A stretch of DNA of 58,062 nt, the filler included, from Porpidia crustulata (lineage: Eukaryota), in the NCBI GenBank assembly GCA_964255105.1. It is 6 parts of 6 records of this genome, joined end to end, with 100 filler letters (N's around TTAATTAATTAA, not from the genome) between each part and the next. Parts side by side here need not be neighbours in the genome. Positions count along the whole stretch, not along the records: positions 19,420 to 29,025 come from CAXUWE010000912.1; 5 more parts are not named here. One strand, written 5' to 3'. Shown here in pieces: positions 8,119-55,760 of this stretch. The notes under the pieces were generated by a model, which made no database searches, was not told the DNA's origin, and worked only from the letters and a program-made list of their open reading frames with translations. Within the stretch, counting starts at the first letter, position 1, and the number at the start of each line of letters is the position of its first letter. Both the position numbers and the translations under genes were made by a program.

Positions 8119-9410
8119 ATGATCGCCGCACGAGTCGTCGGTCGGTCGTCGCGGTTCATCGCTGCAGCGACCACCAGCGGCACCCCTCGCATCGCCGCAA
8201 CCGCAACACTGATCAACTCCCACAAACCCATTAACATCGTCCGACCCCTCACCAGTTCGACGAAGCTGTACAAGGAAGACAAGTCCTCGGCTTCCGACAA
8301 GAGCGCCGCCGCCACGGCGCTCGAGGGAGACGCCGGCCATGAGGGCAGCTTCTCCCGTACCGACAACAAAGTGACGATTGAGTACCCTGAGGAGCATGAG
8401 TTGCCACCGAGCACTCCGGTGCAGGGACGTGGAGGGCTACACTTCAAGCGGACTCTGGCGTCGTTTACTTTGGAAGGGAAGGTGGTTGTTGTCACTGGTG
8501 GGGCAAGAGGTTTGGGGTTGGTTATGAGCCAGGCCGCTGTCATCAGCGGTGCTGACGTTGCTATTGTTGATCTAAATAGTGAGTTAAATCATTTACTACT
8601 ACGGGGATATGCTAATTACGATCTACAGAGGAGGAAGGTGAACGTCAAGCCAAAGAGTTGATGAAGCACTTTGTAGACGAGAATCCAGGCGCTGAAGCGT
8701 ATGTGTACTGCGATAGTATGAGAAATCGTCTAATCCCTCCTAGAATCCCCAAGGTCACTGCTCACTACGCAGACGTCTCTGATCCCGAGTCCGTCAATGC
8801 CGCCATTGCCGAAATAGTCGCCGACCACGGCAAAATTGATAATCTCGTCACCTCCGCCGGCTTCACCGAGAACTTCGACGCCATCGCCTATCCACCAGAT
8901 CGCATGCGCAAGCTCTGGGGCGTCAATGTCGACGGGACCTATTTCTTCGCCATCGCCGTTGCAAAGCATCTAATGGAACGCAAGGCCAATGGCGCGGTCG
9001 TTTTCATTGGGAGTATGTCGGGCGCCGTCGTCAATGTGCCGCAGCCGCAAGCACCTTACAATGCCGCCAAAGCGGCCGTGAGGCATCTGGCGAGCAGTCT
9101 GGCGGTCGAGTGGGCACACGCGGGCATTCGTGTCAACGTGATTTCTCCGGGTTACATGTTGACGGCATTGTAAGTTCAATAAACCTTTGCTCACATTTCT
9201 CGTAAGTCCTAAGCTAATTTGATGCCCAGGACCAAGAAAATCCTCGACGACAACCCAGATCTCTACAAACATTGGATCTCCCTGATCCCCCAAGGCAAGA
9301 TGGGACAGCCGGAGGATCTCATGGGCGCCGTCACCTTCTTGCTCAGCGACGCCGCGGGTTACATCACCGGAGCGGATCTCCGGGTTGATGGGGGTTACAC
9401 CGTCACTTGA
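8119..9410 (+). CDS. Short-chain dehydrogenase, D-arabinitol 2-dehydrogenase-like, with probable mitochondrial presequence
   Basis: TGGARGLG NAD-binding motif, YNAAK catalytic motif, VNVPQPQAPYN, DLRVDGGYT end; Arg/Ser/Ala-rich N-terminus; three short introns. Confidence 0.9.
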
Positions 9411-23969: not shown

Positions 23970-26920
23970 ATGGATTTTGTAAGTTTCTCAATTCTTGTTT
24001 TCAATCGGGGGAATTTTACTGACAATGGTTGAATTTACAGTGGTTGCGCTTGACCGGCGGAGCCAGCGCTTCCTCTTTGGCCAAGCCAGCATATTTCACG
24101 GATCCTCAGCAACGTTTGGCCCGCTTCAAGCGGATACATGACCAGCTATTGGTAGAGCCTTCATGAATCCACCAAACCCCTAGCTAATACATGAGATAGC
24201 AATTATGGCGTAGCAAGAAATATCTGTCCAACGGCCCTACTACCACCGAGAATGTTCGCACTTGCATTGAAGGCCTCAGGCGTATGCTGGAATATGAAGT
24301 CCAGGCGCCGGCACCGCACCTCTGTATTGAGTTTCTTGCCGCGTCGCAGACTTACAATGTTGTGACAAAGATTGCGTCGCTGTCTCATGACGAAAGTATT
24401 ATTCGCGAGACACTCGAGTTGTCGAACATACTTATCGAAAATGAGGAGGGTAATTTTCTCGAGGATCAGCATTTCGCAGATTCACTGGTAGCTTTAATCT
24501 ACGCATTGTCAAGTTCTATCGCATCTCTGATGGAGGTTGAGAACGCTATGGTCGAGGTCTTATTCGGGATCGCAGCCAAGATGAGACAGCAGCCGAAATC
24601 ATTGCCAACATGGTTTAGGCCTGGAAATCGTCACCCAGAGGGTGCCACATCGGGGTCTGCAATCACTAATTCCAGCTCGAGGTCAAATAACCGAGAGTTT
24701 CCTTTGTTCTACTTCCTACTTAACTATGTGCATCATGAAGGTAAGGTCGGTGACTTCGCAAGAACAGGGCTCCTGTATATCATCGAGACTGCTACCCATT
24801 CCGACGAATTAGAGAGATGGATTGTGGAAAGCGATCTCGCCATGTTGATGGCAAGTGGGCTAGGGGCACTATATAGTCAACTTAGCAGGTACATTACTCT
24901 CGTTCCATGTGAAAGCTCTGCAGCTGAACTCTGTAGGAAGCTTATCCTATCATTTCCCAATGGATCAGTGCCTGCGATAGTTGCTTTCTCTGGAAACACC
25001 AGTCCTCCACCTCCCCTTGGTACAGAGATGTCCACTTCCGAAGAGTTCCAAGCACATATGGCTACTTTTCTGTCGTATCTAGTCTTCTGGCAAGATGTCT
25101 TAGAACACTGTACTTCAAATGATGTGAAACAGAGCTTGCTTGACCATTTTGAATATCTTTTCTTGCGGCAATTATTGTAGGTTGATTTGTCAAGTAGCGC
25201 TTTTAACATGCTCACAGCTCTTAGGTACCCTTCGCTGATGGAATCCTCCGATACTGATGGTGGCTCGGCTGTTGCAGTCCTAAGTTACCTACGATGTATC
25301 CTCGAATCGATTGATCATCCTGAGCTTACTCATCTGATCCTACGGTATCTCTTTGCCCTTCCCAAAGGACTGTCTGAAGATTTGTCAAAGGCAAGACCAA
25401 CCACGCTCGTGAGGCGACGAAAGTCCGAAATACTTATCAGTACCTTGGCTACTGGTGATCAGAAGCCTTCGCCAGACTTGTTTACTCTGGTCGATTTGAT
25501 ACTTACTAATCTCCAGAGTCGAAATCAACAAACAGTCACCGCAACTCTACGCTTGATTTCTGTCATCTTACGTAGTCATCATCAGCATGCCTTATCCACG
25601 CTTGTCAGAATTAATACGGAGAGTTCGAGCGTCCAGCGCACAATTCTGGCTCACGACGAAGCCCTAGATCATCTCCTCTCCCTAGCAGAAGATGTTGCTC
25701 CCCATGATGATCTAGAAGTATCTTTCGAAACGCACCTGCAGGACGCACACAGCCTTCTAGAATTCCATGCATGCTCAACCTCTTTGCTTGCTCTACCTAG
25801 CATGAGTTCACTCATAACGCAGCCTTCAATGGAAAAGCACACATCAGAGAAACCGCCATTACTGCAAGCACATAGCATTTCACCCGATGATCCAATGTTG
25901 AAATTGCTTCTATTATCATTTGCAAATTTTCTACAGAATGACATTGAGACAAATCTCAGCTTGACGCAGACACTCTCAACCCTCGCATCGTGTGGCTTTA
26001 CCCAATTGGAAGGTTGGCTCTTGTCGAATAGTGAGAACAATAGTCAAACTACAATATTTGACACTCGAGAAATATCCGGAGTCGATAATACTCATGAGGT
26101 GATTGTGGATGAGCATCGTCCTAGCGCTTACGGCGATGACAATGCTGCTGATACACACGTCTTAGATCCGGTCTACCAAAACCTAGCTTCGGCGTCTTCG
26201 CCTGTTCTTACTGTCCTTCAGTCTCTTCTCGACCAATTGGAGAAAATTCGGAGGACTATTCCAGACTTCGACTTGTATTTGGCTGAGCGCCGGCATATAT
26301 TCAAGGTCGGAGAGGAAATCGATAATGCTCTAGCAGAGAAATCTAACATTCCTGGAAAATCCGAAGACTCAAAACACACTTCCCCTACAAGATACCGGGA
26401 AGCTGCTCCGATGGGTTCAATTCCACCGCGACTACTATCTGAAAACACTTCAGCCAGTGCCTCTCGATCCAGCTCTCCGCGAGGTAGACAGTTGACCGAC
26501 CCTCCGCAATCTGCTCTGGTTGGAAGGTTGAGCCATCTCCAAATCCCTCCTTCATCAAGTCCTTCAGGTCTAGGATCGAGGGCTTATTCATCGTCCCCAT
26601 TGCGGAAACACTCTTTATCATCGCAACCCCCTAAATTTGCCAACCCTTCCTTGGGTCCTGCGGATGCACTGCAGCAGAGGATTAAAATGAACCCGCGACC
26701 GGTGGATCGGCGAGGTCATGTGCGTGAGCTAGGGAGCAGCGAATCCAGTACTGTACGCAGTGAATCAGGCGAGCCGGTGTCGCGCACCGCGGAGGAACCA
26801 CCCGAGGTCAGCCTCAGCCATCTACTGACAAATGTGATCATCCTTCAGGAGTTCGTTCTGGAAATCGCTGCTATTGTACAAGTGCGAGTGAGCTTGTTCG
26901 ACGAGGTTGCATTTGTCTGA
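23970..26920 (+). CDS. fhipA: FHIP / RAI16-like (FAM160) subunit of the FTS-Hook-FHIP dynein adaptor complex
   Basis: 9-nt first exon ATGGATTTT plus intron 23979-24040 gives MDFWLRLTGG; FPLFYFLLNYVHHEGKVGDFARTGLLYIIE, MASGLGALYSQLS, FLSYLVFWQDVLEHC, C-terminal SHLLTNVIILQEFVLEIAAIVQVRVSLF. Confidence 0.88.
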
Positions 26921-27765
26921 CTTTGGTATCGGCACGCACGATTTTGTTAGCTAGAAGGTCGTGAAGTTGGACGTCGAAAGACATCCACCCGGCGAGTTGT
27001 CTGAATCGAGTTGCCGGAGTGGCCGAAAGATGTAGTTGAGTATTCGATATCCTTGTCCCTGGTGGTTAAAGTATCAGAATCAGCCTCCCTTGCAGATGTA
27101 TATTTGACTATCGCACTGTCTGACCGAGCGTGAGCGCAAGGAATTGGCGACGAGGTGAGTAGTATAAATATGGCCCTGGCTTTTCAGCAGTGTAGCAACA
27201 TCTGCTTACTGTCTACGTTCAGTCTTTGTCGATACAAACTGCCAGCTCTCTGGCTCATAGTCCTCATAAAGCGTTCTCCTGTTGAACCGAAGTCCACCCA
27301 CCCATTTCCTCTCATATCAACTTTGGAGGGACCATGCTACATTGGCATTCAGCAGCCTATTCCCCGCAATCAGCAGCTGCAGGGCAGACTTGTTATAGGG
27401 TCACCGACGTCTGATCATTCGTGGCGTTTGTCAAATAGTTGCGATTTAAGAAGCCGGGAGGCTATATTTTCATGATGCACTGATCTATAGTGCTTCAATG
27501 ACCCTATGACTATAGCAAAGTATATTTCTGTCAAGCACAATATACAATCAATCCATATATCCTTCCCAGCAATGGATCAGATCACGCCTTGCGAATATAC
27601 CATCTTTCCAGTGACATACCTATCTGCCTCACCCATGCATCTGCCTTTTCCACCCACTCTCAAACTTCCCCCGTCATGTCGTATCAGTCGAATTTCCCAA
27701 TGAAGCGACATGAATCCTCAAGTCATTCCTACAATTGAAACACTTGAATTATATCAGAAAAATTC

Positions 27766-27770
27766 AAAAA
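27766..27770 (-). terminator. Pol III oligo-T terminator of the tRNA gene
   Basis: TTTTT on the minus strand 2 nt after the discriminator base. Confidence 0.75.
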
Positions 27771-27772
27771 TA

Positions 27773-27914
27773 TAGTCGCACTGAGGATCGAACTCAGAAC
27801 TGGAAGTTATTAGCATGGTGTAGGATGTTGATGGTTGAATTTCTGTACCCTTCTCGGAAGCTGCGGAGTTCACAGTTTGTGAACGAGAAATCATAACCAT
27901 TAGACCATGCGACT
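27773..27914 (-). tRNA. tRNA-Val(CAC) with two introns (canonical 37/38 intron 27858-27877; GT-AG insertion 27800-27848 in the variable loop)
   Basis: Spliced form AGTCGCA TG GTCT AATGGTTA TGAT T TCTCG TT CAC AC CGAGA AGGTT CTGAG TTCGATC CTCAG TGCGACT A: perfect 7-bp acceptor, 5-bp anticodon and 5-bp T stems, A and B boxes, discriminator A73. Confidence 0.9.
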
Positions 27915-29025
27915 GTAATTCTTCAAGTTTAGGCTTATTGTAAAATCTATTATTGATGATTTGTAAGACGACAAGATAAGCGGAAAGATTAGTATCGACT
28001 CTCCTCTGTGTTTAGATCATTAATGTGGGCAATATCTTTATTGAATACATAATTGGCTTTTGCAAAATAGAAATGTGTCCCAAGATCATATCTATGATCA
28101 TATTCTCAATATAGCCCTGCTATTTTTCCTTTCAGTGAAACGACAAAATCAGCAACGAAGGCCAAAAAACCCTCACAATCTCCATCTCCACCTCCATCTC
28201 CATCCACTTCATCTCCAACGCACCGCAACAAATACTCTCAACCTACCAAAAAAAAATCTGCATTTCATTCTATCTGCTAGTCCCAAGTATCTACTCCAGC
28301 GTGCACCAAACCGTAAGGCTCTCTATCTACACTTTATTTCCCGTCCGCTTCATTATTTACCAAAACTTTTCTTTTGAGTGGTTTTTTCGTGCTTGTTTTT
28401 CGATCTCTGTGGACGTGGAGAAGCTACAAAGCCCGCGCAATATACGAGATCGAAGCGTTTCATTGAGAATTAAATATCCGTGCGGAATTTCAAATCCACG
28501 TTCCTCTACGAGTATAGCAAAAGACACTGCCAACAATCGACATCCAAACCCCCCGCGACCGCGACCGCGACCGCCACAACCCCTATCACAAACCCCCCTC
28601 GCTGAGCGCCACCAAGACTCACGTCCGTCACAAGTTGATGACAGTCTTCAGAAAACCACTACCAAGATCATCACCAACTACAATCGCGAATACCCTTCAG
28701 GAGCAGAAAAAAAATGTCGTAGGCGGAGGGCAAGTGGATAGATACGGGTATGGTGGCTGGGGGGTATCGATGGTGCGGGAATCACTTCAACGGAAAAACC
28801 CTCCACGCCAAATCCCCTAACCCGAACGCCAATCAAAAACACCAATACCAAAGCATCGCAACCCCCCCTCCCCCATCAACCTCCCTTAACCCAGCAAAAC
28901 ACACAACCATAACAGACCCAAACACTAAACCCAACCGTCAAAAGTACCACACAAAACGACGCTAGCGATATAAAACCCTGCATATAAACCCCTGCAACCC
29001 ACCAGCAGCACCAGCATCCACGATC

Positions 29026-29125
29026 NNNNNNNNNNNNNNNNNNNNNNNNNNNNNNNNNNNNNNNNNNNNTTAATTAATTAANNNNNNNNNNNNNNNNNNN
29101 NNNNNNNNNNNNNNNNNNNNNNNNN
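29026..29125. other. Artificial contig spacer
   Basis: Same linker. Confidence 0.98.
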
Positions 29126-30204: not shown

Positions 30205-33200
30205 TTAGTTATCATTACTGTCAACTGATTCGTGAACGTTACTCGACATCTCATGTTCACCACTTTCAATAAAGGGTTTAAACCGATAGTCGGGACTAGA
30301 ATAGGTGTGAAGAAGACTGTTCATCTTGGCACTGCATATCTGCTTCGCAAGCTGAGGCACTGATATACCCTCAGAGTTCGTGCTGAGCGCATCGGCTCCG
30401 TGTTCGAGTAGGCGCTCGGCAGCTTCGACACTGTCGATTCTGACTGCCGCGAACAAAAGGTCCTTCACGTCTACCTTCTGTTTGTCGATGGCTGCGCCTT
30501 GTTCCACAAGTTTAACTGCTACAGGATAGTGGCTGGTATTTTGGGCAATGGATAAAGCGGTAGTGTGCCATTCATCTTCCAAGTCGGGTGCGGCATGGTG
30601 ATCGAGTAGCACACTGGCAGCCTCCAGATTCCCCCAATGTGCAGCAAGATGCAAGGGCGTGCGGGATTCATGGTTGACTTCATCTGTAGACATGTGGCCT
30701 TTGTCGAGGAGAATTTTCAGACTCTCGATATGGTTAGCTTCTACCGCCCAATGAAGAGCCGTATATTCGCTACCCGGCTCTTTTGTCTGTAGGTCACCGA
30801 TCCTTGCCACAATCGCCTTGTTCAGCGGGTCAATGAGACCTAATCTTGCGAGCGACCAAATAGGGAGCTCGTCGACATTGGGAATAGAGTTGACCGATCT
30901 GAAGTAGCTCCCACCTTCCAACACACCCATAATTTGGGTCTGACCATATTGCCATGCGACCTTCCAAGGGGTCCTGCCATAGTTGTCTTCCTTACTCGAA
31001 TCTGCTCTGATGTCGAGTAAAGTTTCAGTGACTTCAATTTCGCCACTCCTACTCGCATCATGTAACGGCCTGATACCATTCTTGTCCGCAGTATCTGGAT
31101 CAAGTCCGTTCTCATTAAGAAGGCGAACAATCCTCGAGTGCCCGTTCACACTAGCGCTGTGCATCAGACCACGATTGTCGTTATCTCGGACTTGAAGGTT
31201 AATAGTACTCTTGTACTTCAGCATTACCTCAACGGTTTCGGAAGACCCGTAGTCAACTGCGCGTAGGATTGCTGTGCCCCCTCGACGGTCTGTGAGACCT
31301 GGATCGGCACCCCTTTGTAGTAAGAGGTCGACAATAGCAGCTTCGTTTTTCTCCGCCGCAAGTATCAGTGCAGTACGGTCCGCTATAGATTCGCGCGAGT
31401 TGACGTCGATGTCCTTTCTGTCAAGCAAAGCCTCGACAGTCGAATAGCAAGGCTTTGAACAAGCGATGGACAATGCTGTCAATCCGTCTGAATCCCGCAG
31501 ATTAACATTGACTTGTTCAAATTCGAGGAGTCGTAGAACGATACTGGAAAGGCCCAAATTAGCCGCAAGCATGAGCGCCGAGCGATTGTAATTATTTCGA
31601 TTTATGGAATTGAGAATGCGCCCCTTCCTGTCCAATCGTATTCGATCTAAGAGGAGACTAATAATATCTTCGTGATTTCGTCTAATTGCTTCCCACAGAG
31701 CATTGCGTCCAAGGATACTCTGACGGTCTAGAGATGCTCCGAGGTCAAGGAGCTCGCGCACGACCTCGACGTGACCTCTCCTACAGGCATACATTAGAGG
31801 TGTCTGACCGTATCTCCATTCTTCTATGTCGACGAGTCTCGTCTTCTGCTCTAGCTCGGGAATGATTGTGGATAGCCCAAACCATGCACACACATGGCGA
31901 CCGTCAATTCCCCCAGGTACATCCCAGCTGCCGTCGGAACCAGCCTTTGTATACCACGCTGCCTCGATGTATGCGTCAACACGACGCGGCTGGCTCAGAA
32001 GTTCAACAGTTCTGGTCCGAAGACCAGGATTTGGACCAGCATCGCGGACGTGATCTCCCCAAAATTGCGATGTATACGCGATGAATGGATTTTCTGCTTT
32101 CTTTGTTTCAAATTCATCGGGGTCTCCGTAAGGTTTTGCAAAAGCCTCATAATCCAGGCAGGTCAAACAAGCGTTGGCCATATTGATCTCCATGTCTGGA
32201 TACCATGCTTGCCGGGTTTCGTCGAGGTAATCTTGCAAAGTGACGTGGACGAGCCTTACAATCTTATTGCTGTCTATAGTGATCAACCCGGTCGTGCTAA
32301 GCTGGATATCTTGGGGATCATAATCCCGTTTTGGATTGAAAGCAATATCACCTGGTCTTATCGCTAGGACATGTTGCAGCTCAGCTAAACTTAGGCGTTG
32401 GTGCGCACACACAATCAGGGCCAATGTTTTGAGTCCGAGGGCGCAATCTCCACGGTTATTTGGACCCCGGACTCTTTCCATTGCTTTTTTGTAGATCCCG
32501 TTCAATTCTTCTGGATAGTTATCTAAGATTTCCTCAATATCTTCAATCGTCTGGGCTGCCTTAATCGCGTCCATGTACAATTGAGCATATAGAAATTTAT
32601 ATTTCGATTTCCTGACAATGATGGATGGAATCCGGTCTCGAAGTGGGATTCGGTCAAAATGAGGCAGCCGTTCTCGGAGTTCCTCATCCTGTCTCAGCTT
32701 TCTACTGAGCCTAGCAGCATCAGGACGGGCAGGATATATTCGCTTGTCCCAATATGGGGCACCGAATTCTTTCTCCTCTCGTCCAATTTCGAACTTCACA
32801 TATCGTTCTATATCCAATTCTTGTGTTTTGACCTCAACCTCGACCTTGTAATAAGGCTCGACTTGCTTGTGCGACACATCTTTGCAAGGCGTGTTCTGGT
32901 CCTTGCAACGTTGGCAAATATCATATTCACCTCCATCACAGATTTCGCAACGATAATATATCTTGATATCCTTTGCATCGCACGCATCACAATCAACAAC
33001 ACGTTCAGCATCTACACCGTCGAACCTTCTCGACATGACCATCAGACTCAGGTTGTACTCTTGAAGCTTGCCGAGAGCGGACAGCAATTCATACTGGCGA
33101 CCCAGATCACCGCATTCATCTAATGCATCTACTATAAGATATGTCCTCTCGTGAGTTGCGAGTTCGGCTCGAAGGAGTTCCCCAAGCTTCTCTTTCTCAG

Positions 33201-34366
33201 GAGCGGCAATTGGCTTGAACACCTTCGCGCTTTTCCACGCATGCTGGAGGTCTGCAGACACGGCTCTCGAAGATCTCCGCCGATTTGGCTGTTTAAGCTG
33301 TTTGAGCTGTTTGAGCTGTTTGAGCTGTTTGAGCTGTTTGAGCTGTATGAACTGCTTCAGCAAGCTGCCCAATAAGTTCTCTATCGTTTGGTTCCTGGAA
33401 TCCTTATGGTCTAGGAACAGACAAATCACCGGTCTATCGACATCCTTGAACTTTTCCTCGAGATGATTCTTCACGATGGCCGAAAGCATGGTCTGGAAAG
33501 ACTATCAGATGATGGATTGATAAATGCGCAGAATATCACCGGCAGCTTACTTTTCCGGTGCCTGCCTCTCCATAACAATGAAGATACCATGGCCGGCCGG
33601 TAGCCCAGAGAGTCAAAGTCGGCGAGTCAAGCAGCCACTGGCCGATAGGGAATGATCTGGCCCAGAGATACTTCTGCCTCGCCTGGTAGTCCAGGGGAGA
33701 AAGCCATTGCTGAATCAATCCGCTCTCCTTGTCTTCGTCGTCTTTTCTCCTCCTTTCGTCGTCTCTTCTCTTCCCTTCCTCCCTCTCACGTGCGAGTCTG
33801 AGTATTTCTGTCGTTTTGGCATTGGTGTCTTGCCCAACGTCCGCAACACCTTTCGTTGTTTTCAAGATGTGCTTAGAAAGCTCCATCTGGAAGATAGGTA
33901 AGAGGTGATGAATATCTGAGCGCGATTTTCTTATGTCCGTGAGCATGCTTATCAAGTCGCCCTTCTTCCACAGGTAGTACAACTTTGTGCAGAAACGATG
34001 ACTTTTCCATCCTCGACGATTTACCATGGCATACAAATTTGCCATGTTCTTTTTGAGTCGTGCCAAAGGCCCCCCCGGTTCACCCCCCGGATCCGGCTCA
34101 TACGTCCAATCCGCATTCAGCACCCCACTTGTGCGTTCCAACTCCAATATGTCTTTGATCCAGTCCTCAGCGGTATCCGTATCATGCTTAAGTCGCTCGA
34201 TCTTCTCAACAAGGTTCTGAATCTCCTCTAAGTTCTCTTTAATCTGCTTGATTTCTTCTTCTGCGTGGCTCAGGTCATGCCAGGTCGAGTGAGCCTGCTG
34301 TCCAGCCAGTCCGCAGAGCTGAATCAAAGTGAGACAGCCAACAGTGATGCTGAAAGGGTCAGTCAT
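30205..34366 (-). CDS. Fungal NLR-like STAND protein: helical (HeLo-like) N-terminus, NACHT with inserted ZZ zinc finger, ankyrin repeats
   Basis: Start MTDPFSITVGCLTLIQL; WLSPLDY; Walker A GEAGTGK|T split by intron 33493-33550; Walker B YLIVDALDEC; CDAC-YRCEIC-DICQRC-C-H ZZ motif; RLVHVTLQDYL; many ankyrin units (GQTPLMYACRRGH, TALHWAVEANH, RTPLHLAAHWGN). Confidence 0.92.
33289..33342. repeat. 9-bp coding minisatellite (CTGTTTGAG x5 plus one variant) encoding (LKQ)6
   Basis: Read directly from the sequence; lies inside the NACHT domain. Confidence 0.95.
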
Positions 34367-35588
34367 TGTGACGAGAATCAGACACCAGAAGGCAATAGTG
34401 AATTCGGGCACAGATGGCCGAGTCGGACGAAGGATATCAAGATAATCCTAAATACGACAGTGCGACTACGAAATTAGCAACCGGTCAATTGACGTTGCCT
34501 TGAGTGAGAGCAAAGTCAACAGTATCGGAGGAGCCACAAGCACGAGGGCAATAGGCAGCAATGAGCCTTGAGCCGCCCAGGCAAGTTTGACTACCTCGAC
34601 CCTTGACTAAATGAGGCTTTTATGTGGAATCGCAACCGGCGAGGGCAGCAAGATATTACTCAGTCACAGGCTGGCTGGCTAGACTTGGATGGCGCCTCCG
34701 GAAGCAATTGATACCGTATTCTATAATTCTATACCATGCTTAACCCTTCATGTCGGTTTTGTAAGTCTCAGGCGTCCAGCCAAGGTGCCAAGATGCATAC
34801 AGGTGGGGCTGAACGATCAGGTACGAAACCCCTAATCTGTTCCGTATCCCGCGTTCCTTACAACTCATTAGCGTACCCATACTCGCCATGCTTGTTCGCA
34901 TACCTTACGCCGCATGGATCTGGCTTTGAAAGCAGCTGTGGGCTGAGAGCTACTTCGCATTCCGTGGATGTCACATAGGTATCTACAGGCTATAACGGAA
35001 TCTTGGTCGGAGTCTGTATAGAAGACCATCCAGATGCATCGACGGTAGATTGACGGTGGCGGAGGGAGGGAAATGGGCCATGTTGGCGTGGGACGCCTGA
35101 AAGTGTGGGGTGATTTTTCGCTTCCGAGAACCTATCGGGTGAAGTGATTGATGATACTCGTAATCACACTAATTCGTAAGCATTATACTTTACCTGTCCT
35201 CAGATTCTTAACGCATCCATGCCTTTCTTCGTGGTCGTCTACTACTGTACAATTACGCTCATGACGTCTCATCGTCCCACGTAGACAGCTGACAAAGCGC
35301 GTCAGTTTCTACATGCCTTAATGTCAAGTGATGGACGGAGCTGCCCAGCTACGGATAGCCTGGCGCAGTCCCAAAATCGATGACAACGAAATTCGATACT
35401 CTAACATCAAAAGGGTTACGACTCGGCGATGGCTAACCCAATTGCGGCTGAGCGACGAATAGCATCGAAGCTGACATCCCTAGCGTGCCATATTGCAGGG
35501 TCGACGTTGATCAGACCCAATCAAAATGTTGCAGTATTCTCACTCATTCACATCTTCATCACCGTATGGGGTTAGATAGAGTAGAATT

Positions 35589-54139: not shown

Positions 54140-54577
54140 TATCAGTTCACATTGATATGATACGCTCGGTGTCTATTCGTCGCTACCGTCATTCCCATCT
54201 CTATGATATACATGCATGTCGGCTGCTATGTGCTTTATTACGGGATACCCTTCTGGGCTTTAGATTTAGGATGTCATAGATGGGCAAATTCAAGCTCGGA
54301 CTCTACCGGAGCCCCACCAACGGCCTAGTCGAGTATCTTGGTTTGCTTATCGGAGGGATGAAACGTATTCACTGGCTGAGGCTCAGCTTTCATTAAGTCT
54401 CACGCTTTGTTTGGCCCAAAACACCCAAAACTGCGCCGCATGCACGACCAGTAGATGTTCCTACCTAGTCGCTTCCTACTTTTCCTTACCTAACGATATG
54501 GGAATATCATAGCTCTTGATACTGTTGTGTTATGATGTCTCTCATCTATCAGCTGTGCATGACATGATAATTATCTC

Positions 54578-55760
54578 TCATTGCCGGTCGCTTTTTTCGT
54601 AGCTCGCACAAGCCATGCTATTTTCCGCTCGCCTCTCTCTTTGGAAGAAGTATGAGTGGTTTTCTGCGACTGGTTCAGTGCTGAAAGGCATAATTAGTAA
54701 GTACAACACCCTAGCATTGTCAAGGAGAATCTTCAGATCTTCTGAGGTTGTTTCTTCCGAACCATTACCAAATATGGGCGCGACCGATTTTCTGGTTCGA
54801 ATCTCACGCACCCACAAGAAATATGGCTTCCGAGTGCATCTGATTTGACTTTGTTTGACATTAGTCTGATTTAGTGAGATGTATTTGCCGGTTCGAATCT
54901 TACTTAAAACACCAGCCAATATCCACAAACATCTTACTCAAGTTGTTAATTGTCTCTATATAATAGCAGAGGCTTGGTTGCTAATATCGGTTCTCCGTGC
55001 AGCCCCTCCACAATATGACACATTTGAGTCTAATCTTCAGGCTACACTGACAGACTGACTAGAATCATTTATGTATTATAGTCTCTAAGCTCTCATACTT
55101 CCGTACCGTAGGAACCGTTCAGCTCCGGCATCAAGTCAGTTGCAATATACTCCAAGTCAACATGATGCGCATTATACCACAGATACGGCCAGGGACTTAG
55201 CATCATGTGCTCAAATTATGAGAGAAATTAATGATTTAGATCTCGAGTTTCCTTTCGACCAGTTATACAAAGCCCAGGTATCTCGACAACCTAGTTACTG
55301 GACTCCCAGCCTCATCTTCACACATCCAGGTCCAATTCTAGGCCCACTTGACATGATGGACCAGGAAGTCCCTCAGCACGTGCAGATCTTCCGCGCTCCG
55401 AGGCTGTCCTTCACAAAACTGCGTCTCAAGATTCTCGCAAGCTTTCCATACTTCCGGAGGGGGATTACAGCTCTGGAAGAGTATGTCATACAGGCCAGCC
55501 TTTTCTGGCGCACGTTTGCCATCATGCAAGTAGCAGCCGATACTATGATTCTTGTTCGTCAAATAGTTGACAGGACAGGAAGTGGAGGTGCATGGCTTGG
55601 TGGCGTTCTTCCAGGTCTGAAAATCTTGCGAGTCTGAGATCCATGGGCTGGAGACCCAGGACATTTCGATGGGTAGGGTGCCGAGATACTGTCTTAGGCG
55701 GTCGAATGTCACCACTCTCTGTTCCAAGGGACCTTTGCTTTGATTGGTCTTTCCTTGCAT
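54578..55760 (-). pseudogene. Possible decayed orphan gene
   Basis: 140-aa ORF 55338..55760 continues in frame with protein-like text after TAG/TAA stops (KWA*NWTWMCEDEAGSPVTRLSRYLGFV*LVERKLEI*); a second fragment lies at 54578..54928; no family recognised. Confidence 0.3.

Follow-up and report, generated by a model that had tools for sequence, protein, structure and literature searches.

A tRNA-Val(CAC) gene of Porpidia crustulata interrupted by a canonical intron and by a 49-nt insert that resembles a spliceosomal intron

In a 58,062-nt stretch of Porpidia crustulata DNA (assembly GCA_964255105.1; six parts of six records joined end to end, hereafter the window), a tRNA gene is interrupted twice: once beside the anticodon, where eukaryotic tRNA genes usually carry their intron, and once more in the variable loop. 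This locus raises the question of what the second interruption is and whether the gene can still yield a tRNA. The answer that we favor, at a probability of roughly 0.4, is that this is a Pol III gene from whose transcript the spliceosome would take out the insert first, with TSEN then cutting the canonical intron. The features on which the argument draws are collected in Table 1.

Table 1. Features of the doubly interrupted tRNA gene and its flanking genes (window positions)
Feature	Position	Strand	Basis or remark
Whole tRNA-Val(CAC) gene with two interruptions, 142 nt	27914..27773	-	RF00005 at full length; ARAGORN once the insert is removed
Exon 1, tRNA positions 1-37 (precursor nt 1-37)	27914-27878	-	Sequence and ARAGORN
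A box, within the D arm of exon 1	about 27907-27896	-	
Canonical tRNA intron, 20 nt, at 37/38	27877-27858	-	ARAGORN insertion position 37-38
Nine nt, tRNA positions 38-46	27857-27849	-	Sequence, ARAGORN, related genes
Variable-loop insert, 49 nt, separating tRNA positions 46 and 47	27848-27800	-	
Exon 3, tRNA positions 47-73	27799-27773	-	Sequence, ARAGORN, related genes
B box, within the T arm of exon 3	about 27794-27784	-	
Two T5 runs, Pol III terminator-like	27770-27766 and 27762-27758	-	Start 3 nt past the discriminator
RAI16-like gene, flanking the tRNA gene	24284-26920		Pfam on long ORFs
NACHT-type (NPHP3_N) and ankyrin-repeat gene	about 30205-34447	-	Pfam on long ORFs

The locus is a nuclear tRNA-Val(CAC) gene, intact apart from its two interruptions. 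Exon 1 holds the 5′ strand of the acceptor stem, the D arm, the 5′ strand of the anticodon stem and the anticodon CAC; the nine nucleotides behind the canonical intron supply the 3′ strand of the anticodon stem and the first three nucleotides of the variable loop; and exon 3 contributes U47, U48, the T arm, the 3′ strand of the acceptor stem and the discriminator A. A preliminary description of this DNA had reported perfect acceptor, anticodon and T stems, and on inspection all three (7, 5 and 5 bp) are Watson-Crick throughout, while the D stem consists of G10-U25, U11-A24 and C12-G23 plus a U13/U22 mismatch. The residues at 15 and 48 are A and U, as the same description had it; the pair that it singled out as an alternative to the usual one is the normal state of this tRNA family. 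Its heptamer TGTGAAC is likewise present in the 20-nt intron, complementary to GTTCACA of the anticodon arm, and this intron has the 37/38 site, the anticodon-region pairing and the position common to relatives of a canonical TSEN-type intron. The A and B boxes and the T5 terminator are intact, with two T5 runs downstream and no T run of four or more inside the 142-nt gene. The distance between the A and B boxes is indeed lengthened by 69 nt, but only 49 of these are unusual, given that 22 related genes carry introns of 15-30 nt at the same place.

ARAGORN's recognition of the gene depends on the insert. It found no tRNA across the window, none in the gene as it stands and none after removal of the 20-nt intron alone; with the 49 nt removed it reported a tRNA-Val(CAC) of 73 nt plus a 20-nt intron at 37-38, and with both interruptions removed a clean 73-nt tRNA-Val(cac). 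Rfam model RF00005 matched 27773-27914 on the minus strand at 35.5 bits (E 7.5e-06, model positions 1-71; gathering score 29) with both interruptions present and aligned as insertions of 22 and about 50 nt, a match that was obtained with permissive filters only, on a 501-nt stretch. The default-filter gathering run over the window missed the gene. A low covariance score after splicing had been named beforehand as grounds for rejecting an intact gene. As a proxy for the gene minus its insert, the related gene L004, whose mature sequence is identical and whose intron measures 17 nt, scored 49.1 bits against RF00005 in permissive mode, a value that stands for this one locus since the permissive run reported one of four loci and left the three others with the same mature tRNA unreported; the expectation of a good score is thus borne out as far as a single proxy goes. 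Rfam in gathering mode found none of five related genes (L004, L006, L008, L016 and L021). Ordinary intron-containing fungal tRNAs seem prone to loss in Rfam filtering. An assembly artefact was considered as the source of the double interruption and rejected, as an independent contig set of run X1, which may be the window's own source data, reproduces positions 26500-28871 with 0 differences.

In the joined window, two convergent genes enclose the tRNA gene, leaving 3.3 kb free of long ORFs around it; the NACHT-ankyrin gene shares its strand, with the tRNA gene 2.3 kb downstream. The NACHT-ankyrin gene is of a kind typical of fungal NLR-like proteins and has a probable 49- or 58-nt intron near 33550-33493. 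A run of N at about 29000-29120 lies upstream of the tRNA gene, with low-complexity, C/A-rich flanks. Further Pfam matches on the window's long ORFs were to the septation protein Etd1 and to an aldo-keto reductase; this set of proteins, like the lengths of the window's candidate introns (about 45-58 nt), points to a filamentous ascomycete. Scanning the window for B boxes gave 7 matches, with 6.4 expected by chance. Two B-box-like copies of GGTTCGAATCT, at 54794-54804 and 54890-54900 on the plus strand, stand 96 nt apart; the Rfam tRNA model had no match at this pair (54794, 54890), which could be tRNA-derived debris or chance. At 54525-54604 there are sub-threshold matches to C/D-box snoRNAs (SNORD2, 19.7 bits, plus strand; sR17, 22.2 bits, minus strand) and a C-box-like ATGATG, and this segment may be an unannotated fungal snoRNA.

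Relatives of the gene were sought in metagenome contigs with an anticodon-arm pattern that leaves 8-30 nt free for the intron and matches genes with and without the insert alike. The scan yielded 27 loci, comprising 22 tRNA-Val(CAC) genes (14 distinct gene-plus-intron sequences) and five unrelated tandem-repeat loci. The latter (L002, L003, L012, L019 and L025, on Ga0182004 contigs) are a tandem repeat of about 60-70 nt that contains the search pattern and is not a tRNA. All 22 related genes have an intron of 15-30 nt at 37/38, nearly always with an anticodon-complementary GTG, and a T run of at least four follows within 25 nt downstream in 21 of them, L013 having none. Half of them (11 of 22, with five different introns) encode a mature tRNA identical at 73 of 73 positions to the doubly spliced product of the gene studied here, and the view that the gene shows no decay holds up on this comparison. 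The remaining 11 differ mostly by paired stem changes, for example at 6:67, 4:69 and 50:64, which is, on the face of the alignment, the pattern of a family under structural selection. None of the 22 contains the 49-nt insert, and the variable loop AGGTT is uninterrupted in every one. In the 400-nt flanks of the related loci we found no likeness beyond a few nucleotides outside the tRNA; with flanks that cannot be aligned, none of the 22 can be called the orthologous locus.

Two runs of other organisms, X2 and X3, come from the same study as X1, the only run that contains the window. X2 and X3 each have two contigs with related genes, and X1 has one, the locus itself; this single contig might hint at a sole tRNA-Val(CAC) gene of the kind in the source organism but is no evidence on copy number, as gaps in the placement of contigs prove nothing. 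Compared with exon 1, the X2 and X3 contigs show 1-2 differences, and one X3 contig has 0 differences from positions 27772-27800. The insert is absent from both contigs that bridge the gene (one from X2, one from X3), in which exon 1 and exon 3 are spaced by 22 or 26 letters as against 77 here, a spacing that is, as we read it, a short canonical intron with no insert. Removing the insert in silico recreates the variable loop AGGTT of all 22 related genes and of the bridging X2 and X3 contigs. The gene itself has zero changes across its 73 exon nucleotides, and its anticodon-complementary heptamer and both terminators are unchanged. From this intactness, the preliminary description had concluded that the gene is under selection, which does not follow: given that the insert is absent from the 22 genes and from both bridging contigs, it is possibly too young for visible decay.

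The insert looks like a short fungal spliceosomal intron, a resemblance that lies in its signals and size. It begins with GTACAG and ends with TTCCAG, thus with GT..AG termini in the sense orientation of the gene. A branch-like CTAAT motif stands at 27813-27809, with its candidate branch A at 27810, 10 nt before the 3′ end, and the closing CAG is the first AG past the branch. The insert has the core signals of a U2-type GT-AG intron, namely GT, AG and a CTRAY close upstream of the first AG. How rarely this occurs by chance can be gauged from the window: of 114,546 49-mers, 422 have GT..AG ends, 24 of these also a well-placed CTRAY, and seven in addition a YAG end, the insert included. A random insert has the full signal set about once in 10,000, and a chance insert is thus unlikely. 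The 5′ splice site is the weak element, as GTACAG has A at +5 and G at +6 and so departs from the extended motif; the usual fungal consensus is GTRNGT. The 5′ hexamers of candidate introns elsewhere in the window, obtained by heuristic ORF joining, vary as well (GTGAGT, GTAGGT, GTATGA, GTACTA and GTAAGC). By the same heuristic joining, six candidate introns of the window measure 45-58 nt, compared with 49 nt for the insert, and the candidate at 8579-8628 also has GCTAAT.

Other properties of the insert concern its arrival. There is no target-site duplication beyond one ambiguous G. That G leaves the register ambiguous, in that a cut one base further 5′ at both ends gives an identical product, and GT..AG ends exist in the chosen register only. 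The insert has no self-structure when folded alone (MFE 0.0), and it is single-copy in the 58-kb window, where we found no further copy with up to 3 mismatches and where its best other local alignment scored 24, against 98 for the self-match. Numerous near-identical genomic copies and a target-site duplication or terminal repeats would mark an introner-like element or a MITE-derived intron; for copy number, the present counts cover the 58-kb window.

The insert also resembles its host gene in inverted orientation. Its nucleotides 3-36 are complementary to tRNA nucleotides about 5-33 (27882-27910), an imperfect antisense match with perfect pairing in three colinear blocks (6, 6 and 7 nt). Insert and exon 1 form a duplex computed at −20.8 kcal/mol, compared with −10.5 ± 2.5 in 1,500 dinucleotide shuffles (P 0.0007), and alignment of the insert to the reverse complement of exon 1 gave P values of 0.0003 to 0.069 under four scoring schemes with 3,000 shuffles each. 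P was above 0.1 in three controls: exon 1 in direct orientation, the reverse complement of exon 3, and the reverse complement of precursor nt 38-66, which run from the canonical intron through exon 2. Owing to this match, the minimum-energy prediction for the precursor is a rod formed between the insert and tRNA nt 5-30 (−35.2 kcal/mol, z −2.48; 4 of 200 shuffles fold as well), whereas a cloverleaf enforced on the precursor reaches −25.5 kcal/mol. The rod is predicted to sequester acceptor nt 5-7 and the D arm, and the 5′ splice-site region lies within the duplex predicted for insert and exon 1. The antisense match could stem from inverted templated repair, from guidance of reverse splicing, or from a role in folding or retention. 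The complementarity to exon 1 could accordingly also mean that the insert is a local inverted-copy repair product instead of a transposed intron.

Taken as a working gene, the locus would be processed as follows. Pol III would transcribe all 142 nt, from the intact A and B boxes to the T5 terminator, and pairing of the insert with the 5′ half of the tRNA would keep the precursor from adopting the cloverleaf. The nuclear spliceosome would then excise the insert, using the 5′ GU, the branch A in CUAAU and the first AG downstream, and excision would restore the variable loop AGGUU. The RNA could now fold as a pre-tRNA, from which TSEN and tRNA ligase would remove the 20-nt intron. In budding and fission yeast, the tRNA endonuclease acts outside the nucleus. 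The insert itself most likely came in by intron transposition, for instance when an intron was reverse-spliced into a nuclear pre-tRNA that still had its canonical intron and the product was then reverse-transcribed and recombined; reverse splicing into a pre-tRNA before TSEN acts would account both for the exact, duplication-free insertion and for the retained canonical intron. We infer transcription, excision, step order and origin alike. The order of steps is plausible, with fold predictions and analogy as its support. Removal of the insert first had been proposed at the outset, and that order draws some support from the predicted misfold of the precursor.

Two sets of observations weigh against the spliceosomal processing just described. 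The insert is not conserved, and the intact exons could for that reason reflect a recent insertion. On the RNA side, the hexamer GTACAG is off-consensus, the predicted pairing with exon 1 would overlie the 5′ splice site, and the 3′ exon offered to the spliceosome would consist of 27 nt plus the trailer only; moreover, spliceosome assembly is normally aided by a cap and by coupling to the polymerase, both of which are missing from Pol III transcripts. A more far-reaching version of the same reading, in which the tRNA matures via both splicing systems in turn, the insert is a transposed spliceosomal intron, the gene is possibly the sole tRNA-Val(CAC) gene, and the antisense match possibly guided insertion and blocks folding and export until splicing, appears to us possible but less likely than not.

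Almost as likely as the working, doubly spliced gene is a recently disabled copy of a multi-copy tRNA-Val(CAC) family, which would have been hit by an insertion of 49 bp, derived from an intron or made of filler DNA with a nearby sequence as template, and would yield no working tRNA, its exons being perfect because too little time has elapsed. The lineage-specificity of the insert among the 22 related genes and the bridging X2 and X3 contigs fits such a history. So does the gene number in relatives, where each assembly prefix or run accounts for two or more genes for tRNA-Val(CAC), which would make one copy expendable. The partly inverted likeness of the insert to exon 1 is what templated repair synthesis could leave behind, the 5′ splice-site hexamer is weak, and the predicted misfold would block normal pre-tRNA processing. 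However, a chance insert would hardly carry the intron signals found in seven of the window's 49-mers, and an intron-derived insert would be born spliceable. The unchanged exons, heptamer and terminators likewise count against a disabled copy, and fungal spliceosomes do act on Pol I and Pol III transcripts, according to the excerpted literature considered below. Even in a disabled copy, the insert would be most easily explained as intron-derived.

Much less probable is that the insert is a tRNA-type intron at an ectopic site, excised by the tRNA splicing endonuclease or a different endonuclease, with tRNA ligase joining the ends. An excerpt of PMC3978253 does describe variable-arm introns in Crenarchaeota, the canonical 37/38 site of Cyanidioschyzon merolae as always processed last, and many ectopic nucleomorph introns without a defined BHB. 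The insert, however, forms no BHB, in which a 4-bp helix stands between two bulges of 3 nt, one at each splice site: in both registers 3 of 4 pairs can form in the central helix, 0-2 of 4 in the outer one and 1-2 of 4 in the inner one, and an archaeal-type or ectopic tRNA intron is unlikely on this account. The test excludes archaeal-type recognition only, given that the gene's own canonical intron, with 1 of 4 pairs in the central helix, fails it too, which is what ruler-type recognition in eukaryotes would lead one to expect. The insert's lack of structure of its own also argues against an ectopic tRNA intron, and GT..AG ends with a branch motif would be unexpected in one.

Class II tRNAs tolerate long variable arms. 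The least probable reading is that the insert is never removed and that the RNA functions despite a variable region of 54 nt, or serves in some other, tRNA-like capacity. In its favor, Rfam still aligns the entire precursor as a tRNA and treats the insert as a single long insertion. However, the 54-nt region forms no stable stem-loop (−2.0 kcal/mol), by which we rejected a class II-like arm, a retained insert would, by prediction, open the D arm together with part of the acceptor stem, and nothing similar exists in the 22 related genes.

If the more far-reaching version of the favored reading is true, this would be the first reported spliceosomal intron in a tRNA gene and a natural footprint of spliceosomal reverse splicing into an abundant RNA that is not part of the spliceosome. 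Introns in non-coding RNA genes serve as evidence that the spliceosome can reverse-splice into other RNAs. Were the gene working, a Pol III pre-tRNA could be a spliceosome substrate, two unrelated splicing machineries would act in fixed order on one 142-nt RNA, a simple natural system, and the insert would be a clean footprint of intron transposition. Even a fresh pseudogene would offer a rare view of how an intron-like sequence enters a non-coding gene. Given that both ARAGORN and the default Rfam run miss this gene, similar genes would be absent from tRNA annotations. In a full-text literature search, with most subscription journals outside its scope, we found no description of a spliceosomal intron in a nuclear tRNA gene.

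By its signals, the insert belongs with the mRNA-type introns already known from non-coding RNA genes. As excerpted, PMC5855946 names spliceosomal introns in U1, U2, U5 and rRNA genes, tRNA genes not being on that excerpt's list, and it favors reverse splicing followed by reverse transcription and recombination as their origin. The U6 snRNA gene of Schizosaccharomyces pombe has an mRNA-type intron (Tani and Ohshima 1989, as quoted in the excerpt of PMC5855946), and U6 is transcribed by Pol III, as stated in an excerpt of 10.1101/2023.01.27.525755. Ascomycetes, lichen fungi in particular, are likewise described as having spliceosomal introns in their nuclear rDNA (Bhattacharya et al. 2000, via excerpts of PMC8527467 and PMC5855946), and a spliceosomal intron of lichen rDNA placed in yeast rDNA was correctly removed from Pol I transcripts, according to the excerpt of PMC8527467.

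The closest parallel is the U6 gene of S. pombe, which like the present gene is a small, structured Pol III non-coding RNA gene of a fungus with a short GT-AG-type intron. That intron is, in the excerpted accounts, proven to be removed by the spliceosome, and its presumed route into the gene was reverse splicing with subsequent reverse transcription and recombination, whereas excision of the insert described here is predicted from sequence. U6, unlike a tRNA, occupies the spliceosome's active site, which by the same accounts explains how it was hit; and unlike U6, the tRNA gene of the window depends for its canonical intron on TSEN as well, a second system made of protein only. With the rDNA introns of lichen fungi the insert would share the condition of an ectopic spliceosomal-type intron in an ascomycete non-coding gene that is not transcribed by Pol II. 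The rDNA introns, as excerpted, lie in Pol I genes and many are conserved across taxa, in contrast to a lineage-specific insert in a single tRNA gene. The tRNA genes of Crenarchaeota, C. merolae and cryptomonad nucleomorphs resemble this gene in having more than one intron, including in the variable arm, with ordered removal in C. merolae that leaves the canonical intron for last (PMC3978253, excerpt). Those introns are cut by an endonuclease at a BHB or relaxed BHB, according to the same excerpt, whereas the insert has spliceosomal-type signals in place of a BHB. Finally, in its 20-nt intron, anticodon pairing, A and B boxes and terminator, the gene is a standard eukaryotic tRNA gene with an intron at 37/38, from which it differs by the second interruption in its variable loop.
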